Positions 16,186 to 64,000 of a stretch of 64,000 nt of DNA are shown piece after piece (positions within the stretch are counted from its first letter, which is position 1; each line of letters opens with the position of its first letter). Position numbers and translations under genes: made by a program. This stretch comes from Candidatus Latescibacterota bacterium (GTDB taxonomy: Bacteria; Latescibacterota; UBA2968; UBA8231). Under the pieces are notes generated by a model that saw nothing but the letters and a program-made list of their open reading frames with translations, was not told where the DNA came from and searched no databases. The DNA is taken from NCBI GenBank assembly GCA_965243025.1, contig CBDETY010000003.1:2112001-2176000 (forward strand), in the 5' to 3' direction.

Positions 16186-16190
16186 GACCG

Positions 16191-19260: not shown

Positions 19261-19325
19261 CCGGAAAGCCGATATGCAAGACCGGGATTGCCGGGGCCGG
19301 GAACTTCGAGGAAAGGTTTTGAGAA

Positions 19326-20471: not shown

Positions 20472-20568
20472 ATCCTGCCCACGCCAACTTGCTCCCCCGG
20501 GCTCAAATCAGGTCCCCGGCCACGGGGAACCATTCGCTGCGCCGGTCGAGCGCATCGGGCCGACAGCG

Positions 20569-30816: not shown

Positions 30817-30820
30817 TCTT

Positions 30821-36691: not shown

Positions 36692-36707
36692 CGGCACGGC
36701 CGTTGCG
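36692..36707 (+). promoter_or_regulatory. Putative sigma54 (-24/-12) promoter
   Basis: CGGCACG-GCCG-TTGCG versus consensus TGGCACG-N4-TTGCW, exact GG-N10-GC spacing, about 110 nt upstream of ATG 36814. Confidence 0.55.
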
Positions 36708-36813
36708 ACCGGCGGCGAAGTCAGCCCGACCTGCCGCCCCGGCACTCGGGCCTGAGCGAACCGCGCGGACGGAGACCCGGCCGGCCGGACCTGTCGAGAG
36801 AGGAGGGTTGTCC

Positions 36814-39903: not shown

Positions 39904-39924
39904 ACGAGGAAGGGGGAGCGACCC

Positions 39925-43179: not shown

Positions 43180-43186
43180 GCGGAAA

Positions 43187-44245: not shown

Positions 44246-44255
44246 AGCAACGCCG

Positions 44256-44273
44256 CAAGGTCAGCTGACCTTG
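44256..44273. repeat. Perfect 18-bp palindrome in intergenic region
   Basis: CAAGGTCAG|CTGACCTTG. Confidence 0.7.
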
Positions 44274-44394
44274 TGCGAGGTTGCGCGTACTTTGTGCGCC
44301 GAAGTCTGACTCCGCACCGGACAGGCGCTTCACCGGTTGTCGGATGGAGCGCCTGTCGCTTTCCGCCCATCCCGCTCACAAGCGAGATTCCGCG

Positions 44395-47300: not shown

Positions 47301-47421
47301 CAACACCGACAATTTCCGCGATCCGGCCAGCGGGGGCCTGCTGTTCAATTTCGACGGCACCGTGCAGTCCGGCCTCGGCGATCCGCGCGAGGTGCAGATC
47401 GGCTTCCGCTACGTCTATTGA
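44395..47421 (+). CDS. TonB-dependent receptor (Oar-like)
   Basis: Signal peptide ending AQSQ; LPNNGRSFLNL, NISVDGAD, AEFGRSSGG.VNVITKSG, PREVQIGFRYVY. Confidence 0.92.
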   Translation: MKVPRPGILCLVTLFWTLLPGTLEAQSQATTGVIRGSVRDQFDNPVAAAAVALRETRTNYERTLTSSDLGLFTAALLPLGSYDVTVRAPGWSEVRQTGVQVRVGETVELAVRLVPRMEEIVVEADLPAVDVTRSEAATRLPEEAVRDLPNNGRSFLNLTLLTPGVAIVQGPDGDELSIAGQRGIHNNISVDGADFNNPFFGEQRGGQRPAFTFNLDAVEEMVVVPQGANAEFGRSSGGFVNVITKSGSNQLHGSLHFFGKNGALSGTARHDGLRREPDFSQGQAGFTLGGPLLKDRVFFFTAYDQQLLRDTRQQEKERIDGRLRAFMDTQFDGALAGDYGPIDRSDDARAFLARIDWRLSEDQSATFKYNYTWSEQENGTFDVDSWARSANAVERDWSHAFNGSLLSLLSSTATNELRFQVSREDRPRPYRGPLNPRTGRPFPDTAMDFDRGYRFGMPYFIPVEYYDTRIQLLDNISVARGDHLIKAGIEWNRVESVQTFIGFANGRYIFSSTEGFLNFVEQGDGYVECSDGSTAGTGACPDGTEIAGPVLVYLQQAGAGGLTVEEAGTQEIPQHELALFVQDSWKPSDRLTLNYGMRWEAQIQPDVITDPEEVFFAGFIGRTVSNETGTYEFPSNGGIPSDRGMLQPRLGVAWDLHGDGRTLLRGSAGIYHARIPGLNLASSRSTNGSRGQTIFRSSALTPVLGAPPAYGELLPSPAGDPFRPNIFVFDQDFENPRTISLNAGIERELHPSGLVGSLGYTWSRTDRLTRFVNRNDAVFGSPWSTGLGADGGNGIGDLTVVESTAESRYHGVDFGLRQMLRKDLQFQVNYTLSWDRSDDDNERDPFTFRYVDATRLDREWGWSDRDQRHRFNAWALAGLPGGFLLNNRLSWYSAQPVSESCGAGNRGTGHPAVNPWGALSDRICGDGSILRRNSLRKENEFFSWDLRLSRPIPMGPGRLEAIVEVFNLLNTDNFRDPASGGLLFNFDGTVQSGLGDPREVQIGFRYVY

Positions 47422-49899: not shown

Positions 49900-50796
49900 T
49901 CACTCCAGCCCGTAAATCCGTTCGGCGTTGCCGGCGAACAGCCTGGCCTGCTCTTCCCGGGGCCGCGCGGAGACGATCTCTCTCAGGGAAGCGGTCCAGG
50001 CGCCGAGGTCCGCCCCGAGGTTGCAGACAGGCCAGTCGCCGCCGAAGACCACCCGCTCCGGCCCGAAGCAGTCCAGGCAGTGATCGACGGCCGGCGCCAG
50101 GGTGGCGGCGCTCCATCCGGCGGGGGCGCGGGCGACGATACCGGAGATCTTGCAGACGACGTGCTCCCGTTCCCCCAGCGCCGCGATATCGCTGAGCCAC
50201 TGCTCCCTGGTGTGGCTGAAGGGGTTGGCCGGGTCGTACCCGGCGGCGCCGTTGACGACGCCCGGGTCGGCGTTGCCGCAGTGGTCGAGAATGAAGCGGG
50301 TGTCCGGACACCTGTCCACCAGACCGACGGCATCCCCCAGCTCGGACGGCCTCAGACACAGATCGAAGCTCAGGCCGGACTCGCCGAGGTAGCGGATGTC
50401 GCTGACGAATCCCTCCCGCAGGCAGCGCCCGGGTCCGGCGGCCGGCACGTGCAGCACCTGCCGGATTCCCTTGACGAACCCGTTTCCCCTGTAGCGGTCG
50501 ATGTAGTCGCGGAACCCCTCCTCCCCCGGGCTCCCGGAGATCACCGCCCCGGCGACCGGGTTGTCCTCGGCGGCGCACAGGCCGATGGCGAAATCCGCCT
50601 CGGCTGGCCTCTGGTCCGGGTCGAGGTCGACCTCCATGTAGATGGTCCGGTCGATGCCGGTCCCCTCGGCAGCGGCGAGATAGTCGCCGACGAGGTGATT
50701 CCCCTGCAACGGCCCGGTACCCTCCCCGTCGAGCCAGGGCAGCGAGAACCGGTCCAGGTCCCAAAGGTGCTGATGGGTATCGACGATCGGCAGCAT
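49900..50796 (-). CDS. Amidohydrolase-2 family (sugar lactonase-like)
   Basis: DTHQHLW, ILDHCG, CKISG, FGGDWPV; GGAGGG SD before ATG 50796. Confidence 0.88.
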   Translation of the reverse strand: MLPIVDTHQHLWDLDRFSLPWLDGEGTGPLQGNHLVGDYLAAAEGTGIDRTIYMEVDLDPDQRPAEADFAIGLCAAEDNPVAGAVISGSPGEEGFRDYIDRYRGNGFVKGIRQVLHVPAAGPGRCLREGFVSDIRYLGESGLSFDLCLRPSELGDAVGLVDRCPDTRFILDHCGNADPGVVNGAAGYDPANPFSHTREQWLSDIAALGEREHVVCKISGIVARAPAGWSAATLAPAVDHCLDCFGPERVVFGGDWPVCNLGADLGAWTASLREIVSARPREEQARLFAGNAERIYGLE

Positions 50797-50976
50797 GTTT
50801 CCTCCCTCCAGGTTGTGATTTACTGAAGGTACGGCGACGATTGTTTCACGACCCGGCTTTTTCACCGGGTTTTCTCGACTTTCACGTGTGCACGGGATTG
50901 GCCATTTTGTATCTTTCGTAAGCGAACCGGTCGAATGGCCGACGAGTCGGCTTCCTGGTCCATGAGGAGCGAGGCA

Positions 50977-51420
50977 GTGGACGCAAATCTCGAGTTGGAT
51001 GTCAGGCTCGACCCCGAAGAGCCCAGGCGGGTTGCCGAGCAGTTCGAGCGCTTCGGAGCCGAGCATGGGTTGCCGGACAGAACGATTTTCGGATTTCAGC
51101 TTGCGCTTGACGAGATTCTGACCAACGTGATCTCCTACGCCTTCGAGGACGGCGCTCCCGATCCGGTCATCAAGGTCAACTTCGACCTCGACGACACCCG
51201 GCTCGAGGTGGTCGTCCAGGACAACGGCCGGCCCTTCGACCCGCTCCAGGACGCCGACGAGCCGGATTTGACCCTTCCCGCCTCTGGCCGCCCCATCGGC
51301 GGCCTCGGCATCCATCTCACAAAGGCATTCGTTCACACGCTTTCCTATGAGCGGGTGGACGGGTACAACCGATTGAACCTCGTGCAGCCCATGGAGGCGC
51401 ACCCGGAGGACAATGCATGA
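50977..51420 (+). CDS. RsbW/SpoIIAB-like anti-sigma factor Ser/Thr kinase (HATPase_c_2)
   Basis: LALDEILTNVISYA, QDNGRPFDP, GGLGIHL; start GTG 50977 or ATG 50935/50962. Confidence 0.9.
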   Translation: MDANLELDVRLDPEEPRRVAEQFERFGAEHGLPDRTIFGFQLALDEILTNVISYAFEDGAPDPVIKVNFDLDDTRLEVVVQDNGRPFDPLQDADEPDLTLPASGRPIGGLGIHLTKAFVHTLSYERVDGYNRLNLVQPMEAHPEDNA

Positions 51421-51752
51421 ACGTCGACACGAGCTTTTCCGGAAGCACCGCAGTCGCCGCAGTGAACGGCCGCGTTGATTCGGCCAATGCCAAGAGTTTC
51501 GAAGAAGAGCTGAGCGCCATCATCGACCAGGGGGCCACCGGCCTCGTGGTCGATTGCGGCGAGCTCAACTACATCAGCAGCGCCGGGCTGCGGGTCTTCC
51601 TGATCGCCATCAGGAAAACCAGCGCCGCGGGTGGAGGCCTGGCTCTTTGCCGGGTGCCCGAACATATACAGGAAGTGCTGGAGATAAGCGGTTTTTCCCG
51701 CCTGACGAAGATTTTCCCCACGGTGGAAGAGGCGCGGGACAGCTTCGGATAG
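51417..51752 (+). CDS. STAS anti-anti-sigma factor (RsbV/SpoIIAA-like)
   Basis: GRVDSANA, YISSAGLR (phosphoacceptor Ser), EISGF; ATGA overlap with the kinase gene. Confidence 0.92.
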   Translation: MNVDTSFSGSTAVAAVNGRVDSANAKSFEEELSAIIDQGATGLVVDCGELNYISSAGLRVFLIAIRKTSAAGGGLALCRVPEHIQEVLEISGFSRLTKIFPTVEEARDSFG

Positions 51753-51893
51753 CTTCCCGGCCATGAAGTGCATTGGACCGGCGAGCCCGTGCCCGCGGGT
51801 ATGCCGGCCCATAATGCGACCCGGTTCAGCCACCCGGGCTCCATACGTCCCGACCCTGGGACGGCACTCCCAAACCCCGCTCGAGGAGGACGC

Positions 51894-53297
51894 ATGAACG
51901 CACGCCGACACCGATCGTCCATTCTCCCCCGCCCGCGGATTCCCGGGGCGGCCGCAGCTGCCGTGATTCTCGCCGCCGGCATTCTCCTGACCCCGGGCAC
52001 CGCCGCCGCCGCGGACGAGACCGGCTTCGTCCTCAACACCTTCTCGTTCCTCGTATGGGGCGCCCTGATCATGTGGATGTGCGCCGGCTTCACCATGCTC
52101 GAGTCCGGGTCGGTGCGCTCGAAGAACGCCTCGATGATCTGCCTGAAGAACATCGGGCTGTACTCCATCGCCGGGCTCACCTACTACGCCATCGGCTACG
52201 GTCTGATGTACGTCGACGTCGGCAAGGTGATCGGCTCGCTGAGTCTCCTGTACGGTCCATCGGCCGACGAGGTCGCCTTCCTTGAGGGCGACAAGGGGAA
52301 GATGGGGGCGGTCGTCGCGAACAACTACTCCACCATGTCGGACTGGTTCTTCCAGATGGTGTTCGTGGCCACAACCGCCTCGATCGTATCCGGAACGCTG
52401 GCGGAGCGGGTGAAGCTCTGGGCTTTCTTCGCATTCACCGCGGTCCTGACGGCGATCATCTACCCCGTTGTCGGCGCCTGGACATGGGGCGGCGGCTGGC
52501 TCAACCAGATGGGCTTCACGGACTTCGCCGGCTCCACCATCGTCCATTCTACCGGGGGCTGGGCCGCCCTCGCCGGGGCCATCGTCGTCGGAGCCCGGTG
52601 GGGCAAGTTCCGCAAGGACGGCTCGGCCAAGCCCACCCCTCCGTCCAACATTCCCGCGGTAACCCTCGGCGTCTTCATCCTCTGGCTGGGATGGTTCGGA
52701 TTCAACGGCGGCTCGCAGCTCGCCCTCTCCGGCGCCGCCGACGCCCTGGCGATGAGCAACATCCTCGTCAACACCAACCTCGCCGCGGCGGGGGGAGTGC
52801 TCACCGCCATCTTCGTGTCGCGCCCCATTCTCGGACGCACCGACCTTTTCGCCGCCCTCAACGGGGCCATCGCCGGCCTCGTGGCGATCACCGCGGGACC
52901 GGACATCACCGATCCCTGGCTGGCGATAATCATCGGCGCCGTGGGAGCGTTCCTGTGCACCCTCGGACTGAAACTGCTCGAGCGCATGAGGATCGACGAC
53001 GTGGTCGGCGCGGTTCCCGCGCATCTCTTCGCCGGGATCTGGGGGACGCTCGCGGTCTCTCTTTCCGGGAAGGGCAGCTTCCTCGTGCAGCTCGTCGGGG
53101 TCCTTTCCGTCGGCGCTTTCGTCTTCGTCACCTCCCTGCTGCTGTGGGTCGTTCTGAACCGCACCCTGGGGACCCGGGTCTCGCGCGACGTCGAGGATAT
53201 GGGCCAGGACGCCGCGGAGCTGGGAATCGACGCCTACCCGGAGTTCGCCCTCATGGTGGACCCGGACGAGGGGGGAGACTACCGCGACCCGGACTGA
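51894..53297 (+). CDS. amtB: Ammonium transporter (Amt family)
   Basis: GFTMLESG, FFQMVF, DFAGSTIVH, GWFGFNGGS, IDDVVGAVPAH (both pore His present); GAGGAGG SD. Confidence 0.95.
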   Translation: MNARRHRSSILPRPRIPGAAAAAVILAAGILLTPGTAAAADETGFVLNTFSFLVWGALIMWMCAGFTMLESGSVRSKNASMICLKNIGLYSIAGLTYYAIGYGLMYVDVGKVIGSLSLLYGPSADEVAFLEGDKGKMGAVVANNYSTMSDWFFQMVFVATTASIVSGTLAERVKLWAFFAFTAVLTAIIYPVVGAWTWGGGWLNQMGFTDFAGSTIVHSTGGWAALAGAIVVGARWGKFRKDGSAKPTPPSNIPAVTLGVFILWLGWFGFNGGSQLALSGAADALAMSNILVNTNLAAAGGVLTAIFVSRPILGRTDLFAALNGAIAGLVAITAGPDITDPWLAIIIGAVGAFLCTLGLKLLERMRIDDVVGAVPAHLFAGIWGTLAVSLSGKGSFLVQLVGVLSVGAFVFVTSLLLWVVLNRTLGTRVSRDVEDMGQDAAELGIDAYPEFALMVDPDEGGDYRDPD

Positions 53298-53358
53298 AAC
53301 CTCGAGCTGATTCACGGGCCCGGACGCTGCGTGCGCCCCGGCCCGGTGGAGCCGTCCC

Positions 53359-54792
53359 ATGAACTTCGACGCCTACGATCTCGACGCCGCGATCTACGAT
53401 GAGATGTTCCTGCCGGACGGTACCCCGCGGGGCCACTCCCGGGCGTTGCACGACACCCTGAGTCAGCTGCCCGCCGACGAGGTAGGCAGGATCCAGGAAA
53501 GGGTCACCCGCTCCTTCTCGAACGAGGGCATCACCTTCACCGTCTACGGGGACGACGAGGCCGATGAGCGCATCATTCCCGTCGACTGCGTTCCCCGCAT
53601 CCTCTCCGCCGACGAGTGGCGGCACATCGAGACCGGACTCACCCAGCGCCTGGAGGCCTTGAACCGCTTCCTCGAGGACGTCTACGGCGAGGCGCGCATA
53701 ATCGCCGACGGGGTGGTCCCCGCCGACCTCGTGCGCGGCTGTCCGCAGTACCGCGTCGAGATGTGCGGGGTCCCGGTACCCCACGGCACCTGGGTCGCCG
53801 TCTGCGGCACCGACCTGGTGCGCACCAACGACGGCTGGCTGGTGCTCGAGGACAACCTGCGGGTTCCCTCCGGCGTATCCTACATGATCGCCAACCGCAA
53901 GGTGGTCAAGTCGAGCCTGCGCCGCCTCTACCGCGACTGTCGGGTGCGGGAGGTGGAGCAGTACGGGCAGGTGCTGCTCGAGACGCTCCGCGAGCTCGCC
54001 CCCGGGGGGCGCCCCGACCCCTGCATCGCCCTGCTCACCCCCGGGGTGGCCAACTCCGCCTTCTACGAGCACATCTTCCTGGCCCAGGAGATCGGCGCCG
54101 CCCTCGTGGAAGGCCGCGACCTGCTGGTAAACGACGGTTTCGTCCACATGCGCACCACCGAAGGGCTGCGGCGGGTGGACGTGATCTACCGCCGCGTCGA
54201 CGACGACTTCCTCGACCCCCTCGTCTTCCGTCCCGATTCGCTGCTCGGTGTGCCCGGGCTGATGCACGCCTACAGGAGCGGGCGCGTCGCCCTGGCCAAC
54301 GCGCCGGGGACGGGGGTGGCCGACGACAAGAGCGTCTACGCCTTCGTCCCCGACATGGTCCGCTACTACCTCGGCGAGGAGCCGATCCTGGCCAACGTCG
54401 AGACCTACCTGTGCAGGCGGCCCCGCGATCTGGAGTACACCCTCGACAACCTGCAGGACCTCATCGTCAAGCGGGTGGGCGAATCCGGGGGTTACGGCAT
54501 GCTCGTCGGCCCCCAGTCCACCCCTGAGGAGCGCGACGCCTACGTCGAGGAGCTTCGCGCCGACCCGGCGGGATTCATCTCGCAACCTGTGCTTGCCCTG
54601 TCCCGGGCGCCCTGCTTCATCGAGGGCCGCCCCGAGCCGCGCCACGTCGACCTGCGCCCCTTCGTCCTCCACGGCCGCCGGACCCGCATAGTCCCCGGAG
54701 CTTTCTGCCGGGTGGCGCTGCGCCGGGGCAGCCTCGTGGTGAACTCGAGCCAGGGCGGCGGCGGCAAGGACCTCTGGGTGCTGGAGAACTGA
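53359..54792 (+). CDS. Circularly permuted type 2 ATP-grasp protein
   Basis: YDEM, LEDNLRVPSGVSY, YRRVDDDFLDP, ANAPGTGVADDK, SGGYG, HVDLRPF, VNSSQGGGGKD. Confidence 0.93.
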   Translation: MNFDAYDLDAAIYDEMFLPDGTPRGHSRALHDTLSQLPADEVGRIQERVTRSFSNEGITFTVYGDDEADERIIPVDCVPRILSADEWRHIETGLTQRLEALNRFLEDVYGEARIIADGVVPADLVRGCPQYRVEMCGVPVPHGTWVAVCGTDLVRTNDGWLVLEDNLRVPSGVSYMIANRKVVKSSLRRLYRDCRVREVEQYGQVLLETLRELAPGGRPDPCIALLTPGVANSAFYEHIFLAQEIGAALVEGRDLLVNDGFVHMRTTEGLRRVDVIYRRVDDDFLDPLVFRPDSLLGVPGLMHAYRSGRVALANAPGTGVADDKSVYAFVPDMVRYYLGEEPILANVETYLCRRPRDLEYTLDNLQDLIVKRVGESGGYGMLVGPQSTPEERDAYVEELRADPAGFISQPVLALSRAPCFIEGRPEPRHVDLRPFVLHGRRTRIVPGAFCRVALRRGSLVVNSSQGGGGKDLWVLEN

Positions 54793-54793
54793 G

Positions 54794-55768
54794 ATGCTCG
54801 CGCGCAGCGCCCAGGGACTCTACTGGATGGGACGCTACCTCGAACGGGCGGAACACCTGTGCCGTCTGCTGCGACTGCAGGTCGAGTCGCTGGTCGACCG
54901 GCCGATAGAGGAGATCAACCACGGCTGGACCCGAATCTACGCCGGCCTCGGCCGGCAGCCCCCCGGGGGAGACCTCGCTACCGGCGGCAGCGACGACTAT
55001 GTCCTCGCCGATTCCTACACCCTGGCGGGGGACCTCACCTTCGAGCGCTCCAACCCGGACTCGGTGCGGCGGTGCCTGGCCCTGGGCCGCGAGAACGCCC
55101 GCCAGATGCGCAACTGCATAAGCGCGGAGATGTGGACCTGCCTCAACCTCTGCTGGCTGCGCATACGCGACCTCGGCATCGAGGACATCTGGAGGGTCTC
55201 CCCGGAGAGCTTCTACGCCGAGACCATCCGGGAGATCGGCACCTTCACCGGCGTCGCCGAGGCGACCATGTACCGGGACGAGGGCTGGCGCTTCATGCGC
55301 ATCGGGCGATTCATCGAGCGCGCCCAGCTTCTCGCCTCCTTCCTCCTCGCCCAGCTCGCCGGACGGGAACAGGCCGGAACCTCCGACACCGGCTGGACGA
55401 GCATGCTGCGCGCCTGCCTGGCGTTCGACGCCTACAAGAGCAGCCACAGCGTCGAGGTCCAGGAGGACCGGGTGCTCGACCTCCTCGTCACCGATCCACT
55501 GCTGCCGGGCTCGCTTTGCCGCTCGCTCGACATGCTGGCGGCCGAGCTGGCCGCCATGGCTCCCGGCCCGGGCGCACACGACGAGGCGGCGGCCGAGAGG
55601 CTCTCCGGCCGGCTGTGCGCCCTGATCCGCTACGACTGGCCGGACTGCGGGGACGGCGATGAGCGGGAGGGGCTTCTCGCGCAGGTCGGGGAACACTGCC
55701 GCAAGCTTCACGACCTCGTCAACGCGGCGTACATCGGCTACGCCATCGAGGACTCGCCGGTGCACTGA
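54794..55768 (+). CDS. Alpha-E domain protein (DUF403)
   Basis: MLAR.A..LYWMGRYLERAE, RENAR, second ER motif GRFIERA. Confidence 0.92.
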   Translation: MLARSAQGLYWMGRYLERAEHLCRLLRLQVESLVDRPIEEINHGWTRIYAGLGRQPPGGDLATGGSDDYVLADSYTLAGDLTFERSNPDSVRRCLALGRENARQMRNCISAEMWTCLNLCWLRIRDLGIEDIWRVSPESFYAETIREIGTFTGVAEATMYRDEGWRFMRIGRFIERAQLLASFLLAQLAGREQAGTSDTGWTSMLRACLAFDAYKSSHSVEVQEDRVLDLLVTDPLLPGSLCRSLDMLAAELAAMAPGPGAHDEAAAERLSGRLCALIRYDWPDCGDGDEREGLLAQVGEHCRKLHDLVNAAYIGYAIEDSPVH

Positions 55769-55771
55769 CGC

Positions 55772-56758
55772 ATGACCGGGGCAGTCCGTTTCGAGATCGA
55801 GCACGTCTCCCGCTACAGCTACGATTCCAGCGCGCGGCAGTGCGTCATGCTGCTCTGCCTGGAGCCGCTTCAGGACCGGGGCCAGCGGCTTCTCGACTTC
55901 GAGATCGAGACGCGGCCCCCGGCATTCCTCAACCGGGAGACGGACTTTCTCGGCAACGCCAGACACCTCCTCGACCTCAACCGCGAGCACCGGACCCTCG
56001 AGATCAGAGCCTGCTCCACGGTCGAGGCCGCCCCCTTCCCGGCGCCTCCGAACTGCCTCGGGACCGGGGCCTGGGAGGAGATCCGCTCCCGGCAGGATTC
56101 CTTCGCCTACTGGAACTTCACTCGCCCGAGCGCGCTTGTACAGCCCTCTGCCGGTCTCGAAGCGTTCGTACACCGGCATCGTATCGAGCCGGGCAGCGAC
56201 CCGCTCGAAAGCCTGTCGCGGCTTTCCGACACCCTGCACCGCTGCCTTTACTACATTCCGGGAAGCACCACCGCCGAATCACCGGTCGAGCACATCCTGG
56301 AAACCGGCAGCGGTGTCTGTCAGGACTACTCCCACCTGATGATCGCCATCGCCCGTTCCTGGGGCATCGCCGCCCGCTACGTCTCCGGCTACCTGCACCT
56401 TCCTGAGGGGTCCGGCGGGCAGCCGTCCGCCAACGCGACCCACGCCTGGGTGGAATGCAGGCTTCCGGGGCTCGGCTGGGTCGGCTTCGATCCCACCAAC
56501 CAGAGTCTCTCGGGGCACGGGGGCGTGGTGCGGACCGCTGCGGGGCGGGACTACCACGACGTGTCGCCGACCCGCGGCATCCTCCAGGGCGGAGGAGAAA
56601 CCCGGCTCGAGGTCGAGGTGCGGGTACAGGCCGCCGGAGAGGACCGGACCAGAGGGGCCTGGGACCGGGCAACGGGATCCCCCGGTTCCGCCCCGGTCGA
56701 AAAATCGCCTGGCCACAAGAACCCCGACGCGGGGGCCACGGCCGCCGTTCAACCCTGA
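55772..56758 (+). CDS. Transglutaminase-family protein
   Basis: Triad GVCQDY (Cys), HAWVE (His), FDPTN (Asp); GRDYHDVSP. Confidence 0.92.
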   Translation: MTGAVRFEIEHVSRYSYDSSARQCVMLLCLEPLQDRGQRLLDFEIETRPPAFLNRETDFLGNARHLLDLNREHRTLEIRACSTVEAAPFPAPPNCLGTGAWEEIRSRQDSFAYWNFTRPSALVQPSAGLEAFVHRHRIEPGSDPLESLSRLSDTLHRCLYYIPGSTTAESPVEHILETGSGVCQDYSHLMIAIARSWGIAARYVSGYLHLPEGSGGQPSANATHAWVECRLPGLGWVGFDPTNQSLSGHGGVVRTAAGRDYHDVSPTRGILQGGGETRLEVEVRVQAAGEDRTRGAWDRATGSPGSAPVEKSPGHKNPDAGATAAVQP

Positions 56759-56774
56759 CCGAGGAGCAAATTCA

Positions 56775-57215
56775 ATGGACCTGCTCAAGCGCATCATCGG
56801 CATCTATCTCGTAGCGACGGCAGTTGCGGTCGGCGTCCACACAGTGGTCGAACCGCTCTATCACGCATCCGGTCCCGGGCAGCCGTACAGCCCTCTGTGG
56901 AACGTCCTGAATCCCTTGATGGCCGCAGCCATCGCCCTGGCCCTGGTATTCGGCTATCTCCGCAAGCAGGAGGTGGACGGGGAAGGGGGAAGCGCCGGGG
57001 TAACCCGGGAATTCGTCGCCGCCAACGCCCACTTCTACGGGTTCCTGTTCGTCGGCATACTTTTCTTCTGGAACTGGTTCAACCTGCTGATGCCCGCGTT
57101 CACCGCGCTGGGTGACGACACGGTCACCCTGGTTTGGATACTCATCGACGCCACCCTGCCGCTGCTGCTGGGTGCAATGGGGGTTTCCCTGTTGCGTGGT
57201 GGTCGCGGCGAATAG
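56775..57215 (+). CDS. Small four-TM hypothetical membrane protein
   Basis: GAGGAG SD; four hydrophobic segments in 146 aa. Confidence 0.75.
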   Translation: MDLLKRIIGIYLVATAVAVGVHTVVEPLYHASGPGQPYSPLWNVLNPLMAAAIALALVFGYLRKQEVDGEGGSAGVTREFVAANAHFYGFLFVGILFFWNWFNLLMPAFTALGDDTVTLVWILIDATLPLLLGAMGVSLLRGGRGE

Positions 57216-57389
57216 CCTGGAAGGGAGTTGACGCTGTGCCTGTCCAATGGAGCCGGGGCCCACCGGGGTCCCACCAGAAAAAATTCTCACCGGGACGCCC
57301 TTTGCTTTGGCCGGCAAGCGTCCTCTTTCCCGGTTTCAACAGAGTAACCGAATGATACCGACAATCAGATTCCGGAATTGGAGAACAAC

Positions 57390-59519
57390 ATGGCAAGGCG
57401 TCCGACAGCTGTAATCGTTATGGGGGTCGCCATCCTCCTTCCCTTCTCGCATCCCGCCGCGGCGACCACCGCCGGCGAGGTGGTGGACCGGGAAACCCTG
57501 GAGGCTTTCGTGCGGGCGGCCAAGGCCCGCCTGGACAGCGCCACCACTCTTCTCGAGTACCAGGCGGCCCTGCAGGACTTCCGCACCGACGAAGCCTGGA
57601 AGCAGGGCTCCATCTACCTCTTCATCTTCAACACCGACGGAGTTTTCATCTTTCACGGGGACGACCCAAGCCTCGAGGGCCGGAACCTGATCGACCTCGA
57701 GGACGCCGATGGCGTCAGGATCGTCCAGGACCTGATTGCCGCCGCCGCCGGAGGGGGAGGTTTCGTCGAATATCTGTGGCCCGATCCTGTGGTCGCAGGG
57801 GACGAGGAAACCGGTTCGCCGAAAGTGAGCTACGCCCTGCCCTATTCCGCTCTCAACCGGGACTTCGTCATAGGCTCGGGGATTTTTCCGGGATCCGTCG
57901 GCGTGGAGGCTCCCCCCGGCGAGCCCGCAACACCCCGGGACTCGGTGATAACCGCCGCCGGAGTGGTGGACGGCGAGACCCTGCGGGCCTTCGTGGAAGG
58001 CGCCAAAGCACGTATAGAGGAAATTGACGAGTCGGGGGAACTGCTGTCGCCCTTTCTCTCCACTCTCAGGGAAGAAGGAGACTGGAAGCACGGGAACACC
58101 TTCCTCATTCTCATGAGCGAAGAAGGGATCGTCCTGCTTCACGCGGACGACGAGAATGCGGGGGACAAGAACCTCCATGCGCTCGAAGACGATCGCGGGA
58201 ACACGGTCGTGCAGGACCTCATCGCGGCCTCGGACACAGGCGGCGAGGTTGAGTATTTCTGGGACGACCCGGCGCAGGAAGGAGACGAGGATACTGCCAA
58301 GATCGCCTATGCTACCCAGTTCTCCGGCCGGACATACGGAAACACCGTCGTTCTCATTGGAGGGTATTACCAGGATGTGTCGCATGTCCCGCCGCCGGTG
58401 TACGACCTGTCGCTCATCCCGAGTCCGGAGGTGACGGCCGCCGAGGTTGCGGATCTCGAAAGCCTCGCGGCTTTTGTAACGGTAGCGCTGCAGGCCTATG
58501 TCACCGCATTGCGGGAACATGGCGTCGAGCGCTACAGGGACATCCTGAACGTCTTCAGGGCGGAAGAAGGAGATTGGCGGCATGGTTCGATCTACCTCTT
58601 CATCTTTACCACCAACGGATACGTGATCTTTCATGGAGCGGATCGGACCCAGGAAGCCCGGAGCGTGCTCGACGCCGAGGACATCAACGGGGTCAAGGTC
58701 GTCCGGGAACTCATCGAGGCAGCCAGGGCAGGGGGCGGCTACGTCCAATACAACCTCGATGATCCGTCAGTAACAGGAGACGAAGACACCGGTTCGCCCA
58801 AGATCAGTTACGCCAAGTCCTTTACCACGAGGAATGGCCGGGAGATTGTTGTCGGCGCCGGGATTTACGGGCTCCCTGCCCTGGGTGAGACTGTCCGAAC
58901 GGAAGTGGACGCCACGGTCCTGGGCGACCCGGTCGAAGACCTGACCGTCGAGTTTTCCCGGGCCATCGCCGGGCGCGCACGCGCCTACGCCTGGAAAGCC
59001 GTCACCGACACGGCTGGCAAGGCCTCCCTGACCATCTCCGGCTCGAGGCGCTCCCACGTCGGCGGTTTCTACGAAGCCCGCGCGCGAACGGCCGACGGCG
59101 ACGTCGTCGGGCAGTGGCACAGCATCCCCCTCAACCGCGGCATGCGCCAGGTTCTGGAGCTGCCCCTGGGAGGGGACGCGCGGGTGGTGTCCAGCGAACG
59201 GCTGGACGCCGCCAAACAGGTCGCCGAACCGGGGCAGCCGCTTGCCGTCGGCCTGGAACCTAATGCGCCCAATCCCTTCAACAGCAGCACCCGGATTCCC
59301 TACCGCCTGCAATCCCCCGGACCCGTGCGCCTGGTGATCTACAACGCTCTGGGCCAGCCGGTGCGCACGCTGGTGGAGGAGTCTCAGCCGGCAGGGGCGC
59401 ACCTCGTCCACTGGGACGCCCGCGACCGGCAGGGCTCGGCGGTTGCCGCCGGGGTGTACTTCGCCCGCCTGCATTATCCCGGAGGGGTGCAGACCCGGCG
59501 GATGCTCTACCTCAAGTAG
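57390..59519 (+). CDS. Secreted protein with three tandem single-Cache-like domains and a FlgD-Ig/T9SS-like tail
   Basis: Signal peptide; repeats with YLFIF..FHG..D.DG..V..LI..A..GGG.V.Y.W.DP..K..YA; tail NAPNPFN..IYNALGQPVRTL..WD..GVYFARL..MLYLK. Confidence 0.85.
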   Translation: MARRPTAVIVMGVAILLPFSHPAAATTAGEVVDRETLEAFVRAAKARLDSATTLLEYQAALQDFRTDEAWKQGSIYLFIFNTDGVFIFHGDDPSLEGRNLIDLEDADGVRIVQDLIAAAAGGGGFVEYLWPDPVVAGDEETGSPKVSYALPYSALNRDFVIGSGIFPGSVGVEAPPGEPATPRDSVITAAGVVDGETLRAFVEGAKARIEEIDESGELLSPFLSTLREEGDWKHGNTFLILMSEEGIVLLHADDENAGDKNLHALEDDRGNTVVQDLIAASDTGGEVEYFWDDPAQEGDEDTAKIAYATQFSGRTYGNTVVLIGGYYQDVSHVPPPVYDLSLIPSPEVTAAEVADLESLAAFVTVALQAYVTALREHGVERYRDILNVFRAEEGDWRHGSIYLFIFTTNGYVIFHGADRTQEARSVLDAEDINGVKVVRELIEAARAGGGYVQYNLDDPSVTGDEDTGSPKISYAKSFTTRNGREIVVGAGIYGLPALGETVRTEVDATVLGDPVEDLTVEFSRAIAGRARAYAWKAVTDTAGKASLTISGSRRSHVGGFYEARARTADGDVVGQWHSIPLNRGMRQVLELPLGGDARVVSSERLDAAKQVAEPGQPLAVGLEPNAPNPFNSSTRIPYRLQSPGPVRLVIYNALGQPVRTLVEESQPAGAHLVHWDARDRQGSAVAAGVYFARLHYPGGVQTRRMLYLK

Positions 59520-59681
59520 CCCGGAGCCCCGGAGCTTGCCCCGTCGCATCCGGCCGGGCCTGACTGTCGGCTTACGGTTGGCGCTCTCCGGATGTTCGTC
59601 AACCCAAACGGAGTTCGAACTGAAACAGCCAGGAGTTTTCCCGCTCGACCGCGGGTTTGCCCCATCATGAAGGAGACCCCC

Positions 59682-61031
59682 ATGAAATCCGTTTCATTTT
59701 CCCTGCTCGCGTGCGTCCTTATCCTGGGCGCCTGTTCCGACCTCGATCCGGTTTCCTCCAACCAGCCGGAAGCTGCCGCCAAGCGGATATCCAGCAGCCT
59801 GACCCCGAGCGCCCCGGTCGCCGGACTTGCCGAGTCCAGGCCCTCCCGAACCGGCTTCGAGCCCGGCCCCCTCGGTGCCGTCGAGGTCGGCGAGGGGGAG
59901 GCGCTGCAGATCCGCTCGCTGCTCGCGCACACCGTCGCGCCGTCACTGGGAGCGCCGTCCCGGCAAAGCATCGAGCTTGCGGTGGCGGACTTCGGACCCG
60001 TTCACGGCCGCGAGGTCGAGCTCGGAGAAGCCGTGGACGCCGCGTGCTCCCCGGAAGGGGGAAGCGCCGGCGCCGAACAGATCGCCGCCGAGCCGCAGGT
60101 GATCGGCGTCATCGGCACCTCCTGCTCGGCCGCCGCGGTGGCGGCTTCACCGGTTATAAGCGAAGCGGGGCTGGTGATGATCTCGCCGTCCAACACCTCG
60201 CCTTCGCTCACCTCCGACCTGGCAGGCAACGCCAATCCCGGCCACCACCCGGGGTACTTCCGCGTTTCCATCAACGATCTCTACCAGGCGCAGGCGGTCG
60301 CCGGCTTCGCCTACACCGAGCTGGGCCTGCGGAGCATGGCTGCGGTCGACGACGGCGACCCGTACACGACCGCCCTCGTCAGCGCCTTCGGCGACGCGTT
60401 CGAAGCCCTCGGAGGGACTCTTGGGGCCACCGCCCGGATCGAGAAGGGGGAAACGGAAATGACCTCCGTGCTCGCGGAGTTCGCCGGGGCCGGTCCCGAC
60501 GGCATCTTCTTCCCGCTGTTCGAGGTGGAAGGCTCCCCCTTCGCCGAGCAGGCGCGGGCCTTCGACGGCCTGGAAGGGGTGGCCCTCATTTCGGGCGCCG
60601 CCCTTCTCGTGTCCGAGTTCCTCGCCACGCCGCAGTCGGAGGGGATCTACTTCGCCGGACCGGAGTCGGCTCTCGGCTCGAACGTCAACGCCGCGACCGG
60701 CAGGAGCGCCGAGGAAGTGCTCGAGGCCTTCGCCGCCGCGTACGGGGGCGCCCCGGGGACTCCCTACTGGGCGCACTCCTACGACGCGGCGACGCTGCTG
60801 CTGGGAGCAATCGAGTCGGTCGCCGTGGCCGAGGGAGGCAAGCTGCACGTCGACCGCGCCGGGTTGCGCGAGGCGATCGCCGCCACCGAGGGTTTCCAGG
60901 GACTCGTCGGCGCGCTCTCCTGCGACGATTTCGGGGACTGCGGCACCGGGCGCATCAACATCTACCACCACACGGACGCCGGCATCGCCGATCCGGCGCA
61001 GCTGCCGGTGGTCTACCGGTTCGCTCCCTGA
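59682..61031 (+). CDS. Branched-chain amino-acid-type (LivJ/K-like) binding lipoprotein
   Basis: AAGGAG SD; lipobox LGAC; GVIGTSCS, ISPSNT, DGDPY, SYDA. Confidence 0.88.
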   Translation: MKSVSFSLLACVLILGACSDLDPVSSNQPEAAAKRISSSLTPSAPVAGLAESRPSRTGFEPGPLGAVEVGEGEALQIRSLLAHTVAPSLGAPSRQSIELAVADFGPVHGREVELGEAVDAACSPEGGSAGAEQIAAEPQVIGVIGTSCSAAAVAASPVISEAGLVMISPSNTSPSLTSDLAGNANPGHHPGYFRVSINDLYQAQAVAGFAYTELGLRSMAAVDDGDPYTTALVSAFGDAFEALGGTLGATARIEKGETEMTSVLAEFAGAGPDGIFFPLFEVEGSPFAEQARAFDGLEGVALISGAALLVSEFLATPQSEGIYFAGPESALGSNVNAATGRSAEEVLEAFAAAYGGAPGTPYWAHSYDAATLLLGAIESVAVAEGGKLHVDRAGLREAIAATEGFQGLVGALSCDDFGDCGTGRINIYHHTDAGIADPAQLPVVYRFAP

Positions 61032-61198
61032 AGCGGGACCTGACCACCGGTCGGATCAGCAAGGGCCTCGCCCAGTCCCACCGGGTATCGGCCGCAGATT
61101 CGGCAACCCCCTGGATAACGAGGTCAGGACCGCAGGCGTTCCCGCCTGTTTTCCGGGAACGGGAACAGCCGAGGTCACCGCAACCATTTCAGAACCCC

Positions 61199-61364
61199 TG
61201 ATGTCCCGTCGAAGAGATATGTCGCCATCGGAACGCCGATCCGTCCCGACTCACGGCGTTGCCTTCGCTCGCCGTACACCCTCGGTACGACTCGCTCAGG
61301 CGCCTTGTGAGCCGGGCGCCTCGGCATCCCGATTTTGTCAACCTGTCTCTGCGACGGGACACTA
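61199..61364 (+). mobile_element. MITE copy 1 (166 bp, IS630-like ends)
   Basis: TIRs TGATGTCCCGTCGAAGAGA / TCTCTGCGACGGGACACTA; about 90% identical to 63109-63274 (16 differences by hand count). Confidence 0.75.
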
Positions 61365-61377
61365 GTCGAGGCCCCCT

Positions 61378-63111
61378 CTGTCACCAGCCCCCGCAGACCG
61401 TCAGATCCGCTACGAACCGGACGAACGGTGCCCGCCGCTCCTGGCCATGCTGGTCGGGGTTCAGGGGATCGTGATCGTGCTCGCGCCCACGGTGTTGATC
61501 GTGGCGGTCACCGTGCTTGCCTCGGGCCAGGGCGAAAGCTTCATGTCCTGGGCGGTCTTCGCGGCCCTCGTCATCGCCGGGGGGGCCACTGCCCTGCAGG
61601 CTGCCAGAATCGGACGGCTGGGCGGAGGCCACCTGCTCATTACGGGAGTCACGCCCAACTTCATCGCCGTCTCGGTCCTGGCCCTGGAGGAGGGCGGCCC
61701 GGCCCTGTTGGCGAGTCTCATGGTCCTTTCCTCGCTCTTCTACCTGGCGGTTGCCGCGTGGCTGCCGCTGCTGCGCCGCATCATCACGCCGGTCGTCTCC
61801 GGCACCGTGCTCATGCTTATCGCCGCCATGGTCCTGCCCATCGCTTTCGACCGGCTGACAGAAGTACCGGAAGGGGCGCCGGCGGCCGCCGGTCCGTTCG
61901 TGGCCGCGGTGACCCTGTTCGTATCGACGATGCTGATGCTGCGCGCTCCCCGGACCTGGCGTCCGTGGTCCCTGCTGATCGGGATCGCCGCAGGCTGCGC
62001 CGCCTCGGCGCCGCTCGGACTGTACGATTTCGAGCGTCTGGCCGCTGCTTCCTGGATCGGAGTTCCCGACAGCGGGTTCCCCGGACTGGACCTGAGGCTT
62101 ACCGCCGGGTTCTGGGCCATGCTGCCGATGTTCCTGATCGTCGTCCTCGTACAGGCGATCAAGAACATCAGCGACGGCATGGTCGCTCAACAGGTGGCGC
62201 GGCCCCGGCCCCGGGCAACCGATTTCCGCCTCATCCAAGGATCGGTCTACGCCAACGGGGCGGGCATCCTGTTGTCGGGCCTGGCCGGGACACCGCCGAC
62301 ATCCTCCTATTCCTCGCTCACCGCCTCGCTCATCCACCTCACCGGGGTCGCCGCCCGCAACGTCGGCTACGCCATGGGAGGCCTTCTCGTGGTGCTCGCC
62401 TTCCTCCCCAAGGTGACCGGCGCCCTGCTCACCATTCCCCCCCCGGTCATGGGGGGCTTCCTGCTGGTCGCCCTGGGCATGTTCTTCGTCGAGGGAATCC
62501 AGACCCTGGCGCGGGCCGGCCTCGACCTGCAACACGCCATCGTCGCCGGACTGGCGTTCTCGATCGGCCTCGGCATGAAGGACCACAACATCCTCGAGGG
62601 CATTCTGGGAAATCCCTGGGGGGCGTTGCTCGGCAACGGCATGACCATGGGCACGGCGACGGCGATGGCGCTGACCGCCTTCCTCGAGCTGACCAGACCG
62701 CGCCGGCGGCGCCTCGAGGTCCGGCTGGATACTTCCGACCTTCCCCGGATCGACGCCTTTCTCCATGAGGTCGCAGCCAGGATGGGTTGGGACCATGGCG
62801 CCGCCGGGCGCCTGCGCTCCGCTGGCGAGGAGACCCTGGCGTGCCTGCTGCAGCCGGGAAACCCGGATCCGGCGGGGCAGGCGCCGCGCCTCGTCATCTC
62901 CGCGCGTCCGGAAGGTGGATCAGTCGAGATGGAGTTCCTGGCGATTTCCGACGAGGAGAACCTCGAAGACCGCCTTGCGTACCTGGACGAACAGACCGAA
63001 ACCGCCGATGGAGAAGAGCTGTCGTTCCGCCTGTTGCGCCACTACGCTTCCTCGGTCCGGCACCAGAAGTACCACGGGCTGGACATCGTTACGGTGCGGG
63101 TGACCCCTTAG
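61378..63111 (+). CDS. Divergent NCS2 (xanthine/uracil permease-like) protein fused to a degenerate RsbW-like HATPase domain
   Basis: Multi-TM; RRIITPVVSGTVLMLI, ANG..LAGTPP, FLPK..LLTIPPPVMGG; soluble tail 62701-63111; start uncertain (CTG 61378 or ATG 61447). Confidence 0.82.
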   Translation: MSPAPADRQIRYEPDERCPPLLAMLVGVQGIVIVLAPTVLIVAVTVLASGQGESFMSWAVFAALVIAGGATALQAARIGRLGGGHLLITGVTPNFIAVSVLALEEGGPALLASLMVLSSLFYLAVAAWLPLLRRIITPVVSGTVLMLIAAMVLPIAFDRLTEVPEGAPAAAGPFVAAVTLFVSTMLMLRAPRTWRPWSLLIGIAAGCAASAPLGLYDFERLAAASWIGVPDSGFPGLDLRLTAGFWAMLPMFLIVVLVQAIKNISDGMVAQQVARPRPRATDFRLIQGSVYANGAGILLSGLAGTPPTSSYSSLTASLIHLTGVAARNVGYAMGGLLVVLAFLPKVTGALLTIPPPVMGGFLLVALGMFFVEGIQTLARAGLDLQHAIVAGLAFSIGLGMKDHNILEGILGNPWGALLGNGMTMGTATAMALTAFLELTRPRRRRLEVRLDTSDLPRIDAFLHEVAARMGWDHGAAGRLRSAGEETLACLLQPGNPDPAGQAPRLVISARPEGGSVEMEFLAISDEENLEDRLAYLDEQTETADGEELSFRLLRHYASSVRHQKYHGLDIVTVRVTP

Positions 63112-63274
63112 TGTCCTGTCGCAGAAATATGTCGACATCGGGAAGCCGATCCATCCCGGCTCACGGCGTTGCCTTCGCTCCCCGTACACCCTCGGTACGA
63201 CTCGCTCAGGCGCCTTGTGAGCCGGGCGCCTCGGCCTCCCGATTTTGTAAATCTATCTCTGCGACGGGACACCA
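63109..63274 (+). mobile_element. MITE copy 2 (166 bp, IS630-like ends)
   Basis: TIRs TAGTGTCCTGTCGCAGAAATA / TATCTCTGCGACGGGACACCA; direct repeat of copy 1 at offset 1910. Confidence 0.75.
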
Positions 63275-63364
63275 GCAGCCCGGATCTCGGAAGGGGACAG
63301 CCCCCCAACGTGCCCAAACCTCCGGGCCAGGTCTGCCGGGACAGGCTTTGCGAAAAGTCGCGGG

Positions 63365-64000
63365 TCAGGCAGGAACGTTCTGCTCGAGGAATTCACGCAT
63401 CAAGCCGGCGCATTCCTCGGGTTGTTCCAGTTGCAGAAGGTGCGTCGTCTCGGGCAGGAAATCGTAATTCACCGTCAGGATATGGCTGAGGTCGAGCGTC
63501 GGCAGATAGGAGTATGGAAGGGTGGGATCGGCGCCGATGACCTTGATGGGGCAACCGAAGGTCGCAAAGTCCACCAACACCGCATACGGGGCGGCGTAAT
63601 CCACGATCTGCGCTTCGTACTCGGGCGGACAGCGAAGTTCATACCCCTCGCCGCCCGCACATTCGCGCAGGGTCGTCCTTGCAACCAGGTCGGAAACCCC
63701 GGGAACAACACGCTGGAAGGTTGGTATATAGGGAAGAACATCCGCGAGTTCCTCCCTGGATTTGAACCGACAGGTGCGGCGCCGGGTCATTGCAGCCACA
63801 CGCTCGCTCGCCGCGTCGAATTCCTCGTAGCTGGCGCCGCGCTTGCACAAGGGCGGATCGAACAGGACGCAGGCGGAAAACCCACTGCCCCTGGAAGGGG
63901 ACAAAAGCGCCGTCAGGGCGGCAAGCGAATGGAAAACCCCGATTTTCGGTTTCTTTCCGTAGTGGCGGTCGATTGCCTGAAGAATGAGGTCGTGGTCGCT
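63365..64000 (-). CDS. Alpha/beta hydrolase fold protein (5' end outside the window)
   Basis: Frame open to the window edge; IGVFHSLAA nucleophile-elbow-like motif, VLFDPP, C-terminal TTHLLQLEQPE. Confidence 0.7.
   Translation of the reverse strand, partial: SDHDLILQAIDRHYGKKPKIGVFHSLAALTALLSPSRGSGFSACVLFDPPLCKRGASYEEFDAASERVAAMTRRRTCRFKSREELADVLPYIPTFQRVVPGVSDLVARTTLRECAGGEGYELRCPPEYEAQIVDYAAPYAVLVDFATFGCPIKVIGADPTLPYSYLPTLDLSHILTVNYDFLPETTHLLQLEQPEECAGLMREFLEQNVPA

Follow-up and report, generated by a model that had tools for sequence, protein, structure and literature searches.

A ten-gene cluster of a Latescibacterota bacterium best explained as a mosaic for nitrogen scavenging around a partner switch, a GlnK-less ammonium transporter and an ATP-grasp ligase

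The 64,000-nucleotide stretch of DNA analysed here, referred to as the window and numbered from its first letter, stems from a Candidatus Latescibacterota bacterium (assembly GCA_965243025.1, contig CBDETY010000003.1, positions 2,112,001 to 2,176,000) and carries at 50935-63111 ten plus-strand genes, amongst them a kinase/STAS pair of the partner-switch type, an ammonium transporter (Amt), an ATP-grasp/alpha-E/transglutaminase triad and an NCS2-family permease. The best-supported explanation of these genes is a mosaic nitrogen-scavenging cluster and not one fixed machine. Its conserved core would comprise the partner switch, an Amt without an adjacent gene for the P-II protein GlnK, and the ATP-grasp/alpha-E pair, accompanied in some loci by the transglutaminase; the permease, which is fused to an RsbW-like domain, would be a frequent associate. 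Comparison of gene neighbourhoods supports a non-random linkage of the partner-switch pair, the Amt clade, ATP-grasp/alpha-E and the NCS2 fusion across phyla. We further propose, tentatively and at somewhat less than an even chance, that the phosphorylation state of the STAS protein, set by the kinase together with a PP2C phosphatase, controls proteins of the cluster post-translationally, with the Amt and/or the C-terminal domain of the permease as the likeliest targets.

A preliminary description of the window had listed ten consecutive genes and named their domains, and Pfam and NCBIfam searches bear this out, placing all ten open reading frames (ORFs) on the plus strand of the window, which has a G+C content of ~68%. 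The features are, with the C-terminal domain of the permease given separately:

50935-51420, plus strand: RsbW/SpoIIAB-type serine kinase, an anti-sigma-factor-like GHKL protein (HATPase_c_2, 78.5 bits)
51417-51752, plus strand: single-domain STAS protein of the anti-sigma-factor-antagonist type (STAS, 73.3 bits; TIGR00377, 73.4 against a cut-off of 53.45)
51768-53297, plus strand: ammonium transporter, Amt (Ammonium_transp, 333.1 bits; TIGR03644 'marine subtype', 527.3 against a cut-off of 514)
53359-54792, plus strand: circularly permuted ATP-grasp amide ligase (CP_ATPgrasp_2, 519.9 bits)
54794-55768, plus strand: Alpha-E protein, partner of the ATP-grasp protein (Alpha-E, 232.9 bits)
55772-56758, plus strand: transglutaminase-like cysteine enzyme (Bact_transglu_N and Transglut_core)
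56775-57215, plus strand: membrane protein of 146 amino acids with four hydrophobic segments (Kyte-Doolittle; no Pfam or NCBIfam family)
57378-59519, plus strand: secreted triple-Cache protein with a C-terminal sorting domain of the type IX secretion system, T9SS (dCache_2/sCache_2 in three stretches, FlgD_ig, TIGR04183)
59592-61031, plus strand: LivJ/AmiC-type periplasmic binding protein, probably a lipoprotein (Peripla_BP_6, 118.7 bits)
61447-63111, plus strand: divergent NCS2-family permease with a C-terminal RsbW-like pseudo-kinase domain (Xan_ur_permease, 123.2 bits, residues 1-378)
62689-63108, plus strand: C-terminal domain of the permease, with the anti-sigma-factor (RsbW/SpoIIAB/UsfX) fold and without ATP-binding motifs (AlphaFold2 and Foldseek)

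Linkage around an ammonium transporter clade without adjacent GlnK genes

A genome scan, centred on the Amt so that flanks of 10 kb would span all ten genes, returned 80 loci encoding transporters of 49-81% identity, and all linkage counts given here come from this one scan. The loci, designated by numbers such as L001, were searched with the window proteins by tblastn, with jackhmmer on all ORFs, with local hidden Markov models (HMMs) for STAS, kinase, PP2C and P-II, and with Pfam on 78 + 54 + 5 ORFs. In a maximum-likelihood tree of 81 Amts, built from the window protein and those of the 80 loci, the window Amt falls into a clade of 23 members (the window and 22 loci) that has an SH-like approximate likelihood ratio test (SH-aLRT) support of 100 and a long stem of 0.67. 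This clade spans Gemmatimonadota, Gammaproteobacteria, Acidimicrobiia, Acidobacteriota and Chloroflexota/Dehalococcoidia and is horizontally spread, while the 58 Amts outside it bear the label Pseudomonadota and belong, with one exception, to the Alphaproteobacteria. An adjacent P-II/GlnK gene, detected with seeds confirmed by Pfam, occurs in none of the 22 clade loci as compared to 36 of the 58 loci outside the clade.

The transporters of the clade also share the form of their C-terminus. Following a conserved YPEF motif, all 23 members, with the stretch encoded at 53240-53297 in the window and the Amt C-termini of the 22 loci, end in a hydrophobic and then acidic tail; the ten outgroup Amts examined mostly have a short Gly/Ser-rich end, and three of them end otherwise. 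The tail could be a clade-specific regulatory element. A C-terminal feature particular to the STAS-linked Amts was considered as well and rejected, the acidic tail being common to the whole clade.

Three modules of the window cluster were found beside Amt genes in the tree, distributed as follows:

Kinase and/or STAS beside Amt: 5 of 23 in the clade (window, L001, L011, L017, L002); 1 of 58 outside (L016)
ATP-grasp/alpha-E beside Amt: 5 of 23 in the clade (window, L001, L011, L017, L021); 0 of 58 outside with an adjacent copy
NCS2 fusion beside Amt: 4 of 23 in the clade (window, L010, L017, L022); 0 of 58 outside

One locus outside the clade, L050, has alpha-E and transglutaminase genes ~9 kb from its Amt. 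The longest shared arrangement is a block of six genes (kinase-STAS-Amt-ATP-grasp-alpha-E-transglutaminase) that recurs in two loci of Gemmatimonadota, L001 and L011. The acidobacterial locus L017 (Vicinamibacterales) holds all three modules, in the order NCS2 fusion (minus strand), ATP-grasp-alpha-E-Amt, and then STAS, kinase and HAMP-PP2C (minus strand); its kinase, STAS protein and Amt are 34%, 50% and 74% identical to those of the window. The Amt of L021 (Dehalococcoidia) is inserted between triad genes (ATP-grasp-Amt-alpha-E), L016 (Azospirillaceae) reads MCP-STAS-kinase-REC_PP2C-REC_PP2C-Amt, L002, from a gammaproteobacterial metagenome-assembled genome (MAG), reads Amt-STAS, and in L010 the NCS2 fusion lies directly upstream of the Amt. 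Since the gene arrangements differ among the loci in this manner, the modules are not one inherited block, and their linkage goes beyond common descent. The STAS HMM matched four ORFs in the 80 loci, all at most 3.7 kb from an Amt, with a fifth STAS gene (L001) found by tblastn only; this HMM was built from these same sequences and is therefore biased toward the subfamily. The preliminary description had suggested checking for co-occurrence of the module across phyla. The outcome is a cross-phylum linkage of the switch, the Amt, ATP-grasp/alpha-E and the NCS2 fusion; a ten-gene module did not emerge, six genes being what recurs as a block.

The same neighbourhoods could be read as a nitrogen island devoid of any regulatory connection, in which useful uptake genes have gathered by a mobile Amt through horizontal transfer and are co-regulated, for instance by a system of the NtrC/sigma-54 type. 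Mobility of the transporter is consistent with the distribution of its clade over five phyla and with the acidobacterial locus L023, where the Amt lies between inverted insertion sequence (IS) copies of 1128 nt that are 99% identical (7071-8198 and 11600-12727), each with a DDE transposase, so that a GlnK-less Amt is borne on a composite-transposon-like unit. Transposase or integrase genes are also located near the Amt in L005, L006 and L017. An island would further agree with the lack of all linked modules in 15 of the 22 clade loci, with the poor conservation of the last four genes of the cluster and with the NtrC-type activator and kinase found 20 kb upstream in the window. It does not readily account for the re-association of the same families in other orders and with divergent sequences, for an Amt sitting between ATP-grasp and alpha-E as in L021, or for the finding that every STAS match in the 80 loci adjoins an Amt; in addition, the sigma-54 consensus is not enriched in the window (11 matches found, 18 expected). 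We therefore consider an island of unconnected genes unlikely.

The partner switch, the ligase triad and the fused permease

The ATP-binding motifs of GHKL kinases are intact in the window kinase. An alignment of 31 sequences shows D59, E60, N64, D96-N97-G98 and L124/G125 to be invariant and G122/G123 to be nearly so, residues which we take to be the N, G1 and G2 boxes. For the STAS protein, an alignment of 39 sequences shows invariance of S55 and G57, S55 presumably occupying the position of the serine that is phosphorylated in SpoIIAA. The STAS subfamily comprises ~52 clusters at an identity of at least 61%. The genes of the kinase and the STAS protein share a 4-nt overlap.

It had been pointed out before that no PII/GlnK, sigma factor, PP2C phosphatase or Anbu-type protease is encoded among the ten genes. 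Pfam confirms this and extends it, in that neither a sigma factor nor a PP2C, P-II or proteasome-type protease domain occurs in the ten genes or the other Pfam-scanned ORFs of the window. For P-II and PP2C, tblastn with one P-II and three PP2C proteins from related loci gave the same result, with neither domain found anywhere in the 64 kb and the REC domain of an NtrC-type regulator as the sole match. The absence of PP2C is nevertheless no feature of the system, because relatives encode the phosphatase next door: a PP2C gene adjoins the kinase/STAS pair in L001, L011, L016 and L017. In L001 and L011 this is a REC-SpoIIE phosphatase located upstream of the pair in divergent orientation, and beyond it lie a Peripla_BP_6 gene and a HAMP-HisKA-HATPase kinase gene in L001 and a Peripla_BP_6 gene in L011; the phosphatase of L017 is of the HAMP-SpoIIE type. 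The switch of the window thus has the appearance of a common three-part partner switch, with its phosphatase gene elsewhere in the genome. In the nearest relatives, the switch receives its input from a two-component system together with a periplasmic binding protein of the amino-acid/amide type. Unrelated genes take the place of this input module in the window, where the kinase/STAS pair nonetheless still lies beside the Amt.

Two details of the related loci are worth recording here. At ~9200 of L001, the junction of kinase and STAS, a masked run (X) in the MAG record fuses both reading frames, which is why searches of ORFs overlooked both genes and tblastn alone detected them. In L011, STAS and Amt are 1.4 kb apart and separated by a minus-strand ORF of 399 amino acids (8576-9775) with a weak, sub-threshold Porin_O_P match; with this ORF intervening, the pair and the Amt cannot share one transcript.

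Such gaps, in L011 as in the window, permit separate transcripts and bring up the possibility of a classical transcriptional switch, in which the kinase would act as anti-sigma factor for a sigma factor encoded elsewhere, to be released via the STAS protein under nitrogen stress, and in which Amt, triad and permease would be regulon members or neighbours without any contact to the switch. Kinase and STAS protein are indeed ordinary members of HATPase_c_2 and TIGR00377 (anti-sigma factor antagonist), respectively, and their best, albeit weak, NCBIfam matches are RsbW and SpoIIAB. Moreover, the REC-PP2C and histidine kinase input seen in the relatives is typical of sigma-B control of the RsbK/RsbY type. 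In textbook partner-switch operons, however, the sigma gene directly follows the pair, and no sigma-factor domain was found among the Pfam-scanned ORFs of the window, L001, L011, L016 and L017. A purely transcriptional role also leaves unaddressed that the pair keeps beside the Amt in differing arrangements across phyla, and we regard it as doubtful.

The triad genes (53359-56758) run from ATP-grasp through alpha-E to transglutaminase, 1 and 3 nt apart, and are followed by the gene for the 146-residue membrane protein; an Anbu peptidase of the N-terminal nucleophile (NTN) or proteasome type is not among the ten genes. The ATP-grasp protein matches PDB entry 3n6x with an E-value of 1.5e-163, a structural-genomics entry deposited as 'putative glutathionylspermidine synthase'. 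In the transglutaminase, C183, H224 and D240 are invariant in four sequences and the Cys-His-Asp triad is intact. A transglutaminase gene stands beside the Amt in L001 and L011 and is missing there in L017 and L021. The window ATP-grasp protein shares 76% and 73% of its residues with the counterparts in L017 and L021, versus 64% for L001/L011, and the alpha-E protein is 54-58% identical to those of L017/L021 and only 35-37% to those of L001/L011. The Amt of the window is closest to those of L001/L011 (about 80%, versus 74% for L017). As the triad is thus closer to L017/L021 and the Amt closest to L001/L011, two divergent triad lineages must lie beside the same Amt clade.

Published data tie these families to nitrogen. 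Passages of PMC5666114 and PMC6376114, citing Hervas et al. 2008, describe the Anbu operon, including the triad genes, as induced under nitrogen limitation in Pseudomonas putida, and the same passages credit the interpretation of the triad as a peptide ligase to Iyer et al. 2009; a covariation of the domains of the triad with those of urea metabolism across marine metagenomes is described in an excerpt of PMC3597751. Together with Peripla_BP_6, histidine kinase and REC-PP2C genes in the relatives, the induction reported in those passages makes the nitrogen theme of the preliminary description plausible.

The permease appears, by its sequence, to be a distant member of the NCS2 family. It scores 123.2 against the Pfam model Xan_ur_permease (cut-off 27), and 152.7 and 165.8 against the NCBIfam models ncs2 (cut-off 291.8) and pbuX (cut-off 414), and its sequence matches in the PDB are UapA, SLC23A1 and UraA with E-values of 3e-9 to 6e-8. 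The 140 residues following the transporter (residues 415-554, referred to as the tail) have no credible Pfam family and no HATPase_c_2 match, the single hit being a sub-cut-off one to Paf1 (E 0.088); a profile search of the PDB gave chance-level matches only, such as GAL4 and GspD, and tblastn against plasmid records gave none. Compared to the kinase of its own cluster, the tail reaches an E-value of 0.013 in BLASTP and aligns over 77 columns in hhalign (E 0.0022, probability 12.8%), with a Cys opposite the invariant kinase residue N64.

With the links at the level of sequence failing, the fold search alone is decisive. The AlphaFold2 model of the tail, made from 52 sequences, has a predicted local distance difference test (pLDDT) score of 85.7 and a predicted template modelling (pTM) score of 0.80, and the PDB matches that Foldseek lists down to rank 20 are without exception anti-sigma kinases, with E-values of 3.4e-7 to 2.9e-4 and TM-scores of 0.62-0.83, namely UsfX (8ih8/8jzt), RsbW (6m36/6m37), SpoIIAB (1tid/1th8/1l0o) and the RsbW domain of Rv1364c. 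The conserved columns among the 52 sequences contain no Gly, and ATP binding by the tail appears very unlikely. Fold search and absence of the N- and G-box motifs together identify the tail as an RsbW-like fold with a dead ATP site, and the earlier label 'pseudo-RsbW' is thus right as regards the fold.

The tail is strongly conserved and defines a large family. It occurs in 3546 clusters formed at 90% identity, the best 120 of them showing 70-91% identity, and a search of representatives at 50% identity returned 545 matches at E<=1e-3. In full-length matches (~540-600 amino acids) it is found at the C-terminus; shorter matches vary in length and may be fragments. Named members are annotated as 'uracil-xanthine permease family protein', 'xanthine/uracil permease' or 'hypothetical', and a fusion of NCS2 and RsbW-like domains was not described among the matches listed by our literature search. 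A locus of Dehalococcoidia, L022, encodes two such fusions in tandem (1094-4707, minus strand) ~5 kb from its Amt.

Accessory genes, gene boundaries and surroundings

The genes for the four-segment membrane protein, the triple-Cache protein and the LivJ-like binding protein lie outside the conserved core and are lineage-specific additions. The membrane protein gene was found in none of the 80 loci by tblastn or jackhmmer; look-alikes of its product in a protein atlas are clusters of hypothetical proteins of ~144 amino acids, commonest in Chloroflexota, with a best score of 0.97. The Cache protein, which reaches 32.2 with TIGR04183 (cut-off 23) and has one N-terminal hydrophobic segment, shows no transmembrane or output domain by Pfam, NCBIfam and hydrophobicity, and has a weak match in one of the 80 loci (L023; 23% identity over 44% of the query). 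The binding protein has a hydrophobic segment at residues 31-49 followed by a Cys, and gave no tblastn match at E<=1e-5 in the 80 loci. L001 and L011 carry a different Peripla_BP_6 gene, located beside a histidine kinase, that is not the orthologue of the one in the window. All three proteins probably bind or capture substrates at the cell surface.

These distributions bear directly on the model originally put forward, a ten-gene sensory system in which the Cache protein, the LivJ-like protein, the Amt and the NCS2 fusion feed a switch that controls peptide tagging or nitrogen-polymer synthesis. All the domains it calls for are present, a Peripla_BP_6 gene does accompany the input kinase and phosphatase of the switch in L001 and L011, and the RsbW-like domain of the permease could dock the STAS protein. 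The ten genes are not one conserved module, however, with the four-segment membrane protein and the window-type binding protein found in none of the 80 loci and the Cache protein weakly matched in one; the binding protein of the window, apart from not being the orthologue of that in L001/L011, is accompanied by neither a histidine kinase nor a PP2C gene; and the Cache protein ends in a T9SS sorting tail and has no means of output visible in its domains. We judge a ten-gene sensor very improbable.

Several start sites in the cluster probably differ from the annotated ones. As homologues of the kinase are mostly 146-147 amino acids long, spanning ~91% of the query, its start is likely the GTG at 50977. 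Relatives of the Amt align only from about residue 67 on, which points to the ATG at 51894 as its likely start, followed by a segment resembling a signal peptide. The Cache gene probably starts at the ATG at 57390 and the binding-protein gene at the ATG at 59667 or 59682. For the permease, in-frame codons just 5' of the first ATG (61366-61446) encode a stretch conserved in homologues (P0044, L017); a stop lies 27 codons 5' of this ATG with no ATG, GTG or TTG between. The true start of the permease may be non-canonical, or its N-terminus may be shortened in the window.

With the revised starts the gap between STAS and Amt amounts to ~141 nt, versus 15 nt as annotated, and a gap of 415 nt lies upstream of the permease gene. 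Given these two gaps, the ten genes are not established as one operon, and a single ten-gene transcription unit is unsupported. An Rfam scan of 50000-64000, which includes the 415-nt gap, gave only a chance miRNA match, and a scan for sigma-70 promoters and terminators stayed at or under the expectation from shuffled sequence. A sigma-54-like -24/-12 match with two mismatches (GG and GC kept) is found at 57291-57306 (plus strand), 5' of the Cache gene in the intergenic stretch, and has no statistical weight, because the whole window holds 11 matches to the consensus against 18 in the shuffles.

The cluster is flanked by minus-strand genes, an Amidohydro_2 gene at 49900-50796 and an alpha/beta hydrolase gene at 63365-64000. 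Further upstream, ~20 kb from the cluster, the minus strand encodes at 27902-31753 an NtrC-type sigma-54 activator (REC, Sigma54_activat, HTH_8), a HAMP-HisKA-HATPase kinase and a CHAD protein; the three may regulate nitrogen genes at the level of transcription. Genes for the salvage and uptake of cobalamin are clustered at 10512-21573 and encode a TonB-dependent receptor, a FlgD_ig (T9SS-tail-like) protein, Cob_adeno_trans, two Peripla_BP_2 proteins, an ABC ATPase, CbiZ and CobD. The region 36688-47421, with two giant CarboxypepD_reg/Plug outer-membrane barrels (1071 and 1046 amino acids), a 1084-residue protein without Pfam family and a PorV-like protein, looks like a surface uptake locus of the T9SS/TonB type, in keeping with an origin in the FCB group or the Gemmatimonadota.

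Proposed control of nitrogen uptake and comparison with known systems

In the post-translational control that we tentatively favour, the kinase would phosphorylate the STAS protein on Ser55, and upon arrival of a nitrogen signal a PP2C phosphatase would remove the phosphate. In relatives of the window locus this phosphatase is encoded next door, where a histidine kinase and a periplasmic binding protein for amino acids or amides would drive it; in the genome of the window it would be encoded elsewhere. Next, either the STAS protein in its unphosphorylated form or the kinase thus freed would act on proteins of the cluster, either by gating the Amt in the place usually taken by GlnK, by binding to the RsbW-like tail of the permease, or both. 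In this way the cell would adjust its uptake of ammonium and organic nitrogen to what the amide-ligase module can handle. The contacts between the proteins, the direction of control and the nature of the signal are those that we infer from the domains, motifs, gene linkage and tail fold described above.

A number of findings weigh against this proposal. Neither a PP2C nor a target was found in the 64-kb window, and the classical partner of RsbW-type kinases, which hold a sigma factor, could be encoded elsewhere. The distance between STAS and Amt genes (~141 nt in the window, 1.4 kb with an opposite-strand ORF in L011) means that co-transcription is not shown, the promoter and terminator scan being uninformative. 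Linkage is moreover the minority state in the clade, since the 15 loci mentioned above have unrelated neighbours. The raw counts are inflated by the relatedness of the loci, the number of independent events being low (roughly four arrangements involving kinase/STAS, three involving the triad and four involving the permease), and they are not fully comparable because some loci are short, such as L007 with 4.4 kb, and have incomplete flanks. Finally, the permease family with its 3546 clusters far exceeds the STAS subfamily with ~52, and L010 and L022 have the permease without a STAS gene; for these two reasons the tail cannot depend on this particular STAS protein.

A bolder form of post-translational control, which we think unlikely, would have the kinase/STAS/PP2C switch replace P-II gating in GlnK-less Amts, with the tailed NCS2 permeases serving in parallel as membrane-anchored STAS receivers or anti-sigma factors. 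If true, this would be the mirror image of the SLC26-STAS arrangement, and one phospho-switch would set the uptake of ammonium and organic nitrogen together.

The window cluster resembles several known systems and departs from each of them. Like AmtB in the AmtB-GlnK pair, the window Amt is a bona fide member of its family with a small cytoplasmic signalling protein encoded directly beside it; unlike there, that protein is not P-II but a STAS protein accompanied by its kinase, and the whole clade is without an adjacent P-II gene. For the regulation of Amt proteins in the many bacteria without an adjacent GlnK, a partner switch in that role would be a second, unrelated solution; among the publications listed by a literature search thin on subscription journals, none connected an ammonium transporter with a STAS protein or partner switch.

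Overlapping genes for a GHKL serine kinase whose ATP motifs are intact and for a one-domain STAS protein carrying the conserved Ser are common to the cluster and to RsbW/RsbV and SpoIIAB/SpoIIAA. The cluster differs from those modules in lacking a sigma-factor gene and a PP2C gene, in the order of kinase before STAS, and in the ammonium transporter that occupies the slot after the pair. The relatives of the window locus, with their additional REC-PP2C and histidine kinase, are like the partner switches driven by REC-PP2C, a type represented by RsbK/RsbY of Bacillus cereus.

The triad has the three families and the order of the 'Anbu operon' (Iyer et al. 2009, as summarised in passages of PMC5666114 and PMC6376114), and the link to nitrogen limitation reported in those passages agrees with the neighbouring Amt in the window. 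It differs from that operon in having no Anbu/NTN hydrolase and in adjoining an Amt, which in L021 interrupts it, and the transglutaminase is dispensable in L017 and L021. The triad is widespread, its structure has been solved and data on nitrogen limitation are published; its location repeatedly beside, and once around, an ammonium channel narrows the hypotheses to ammonium-consuming or ammonium-releasing amide chemistry.

For the permease, the closest analogy lies in the SLC26/SulP-STAS transporters, which likewise bear a cytoplasmic C-terminal domain of the partner-switch type, and NCS2 and SLC26/SulP transporters belong to a related fold class. The tail in the window is RsbW-like and not a STAS domain, and the transporter is NCS2-type with no Sulfate_transp match. 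Regulation of transporters by STAS proteins has precedent, according to excerpts of the published work, in MlaB with MlaF and in the STAS domains of SLC26; compared to MlaB/MlaF, the domain fused in the window is the RsbW-like half of the switch. The best structural match of the tail is UsfX, the anti-sigma-F of Mycobacterium tuberculosis (8ih8, 8jzt; E 3.4e-7, TM-score 0.68-0.75), an anti-sigma factor that is not known to act as a kinase and is under the control of STAS-type antagonists. UsfX exists as a soluble protein in its own right, and its sigma partner is known, whereas the tail is fused to a membrane permease and 17-19% identical to UsfX. The size of the permease family points to a docking of partner-switch proteins on transporters that reaches beyond the SLC26-STAS case.

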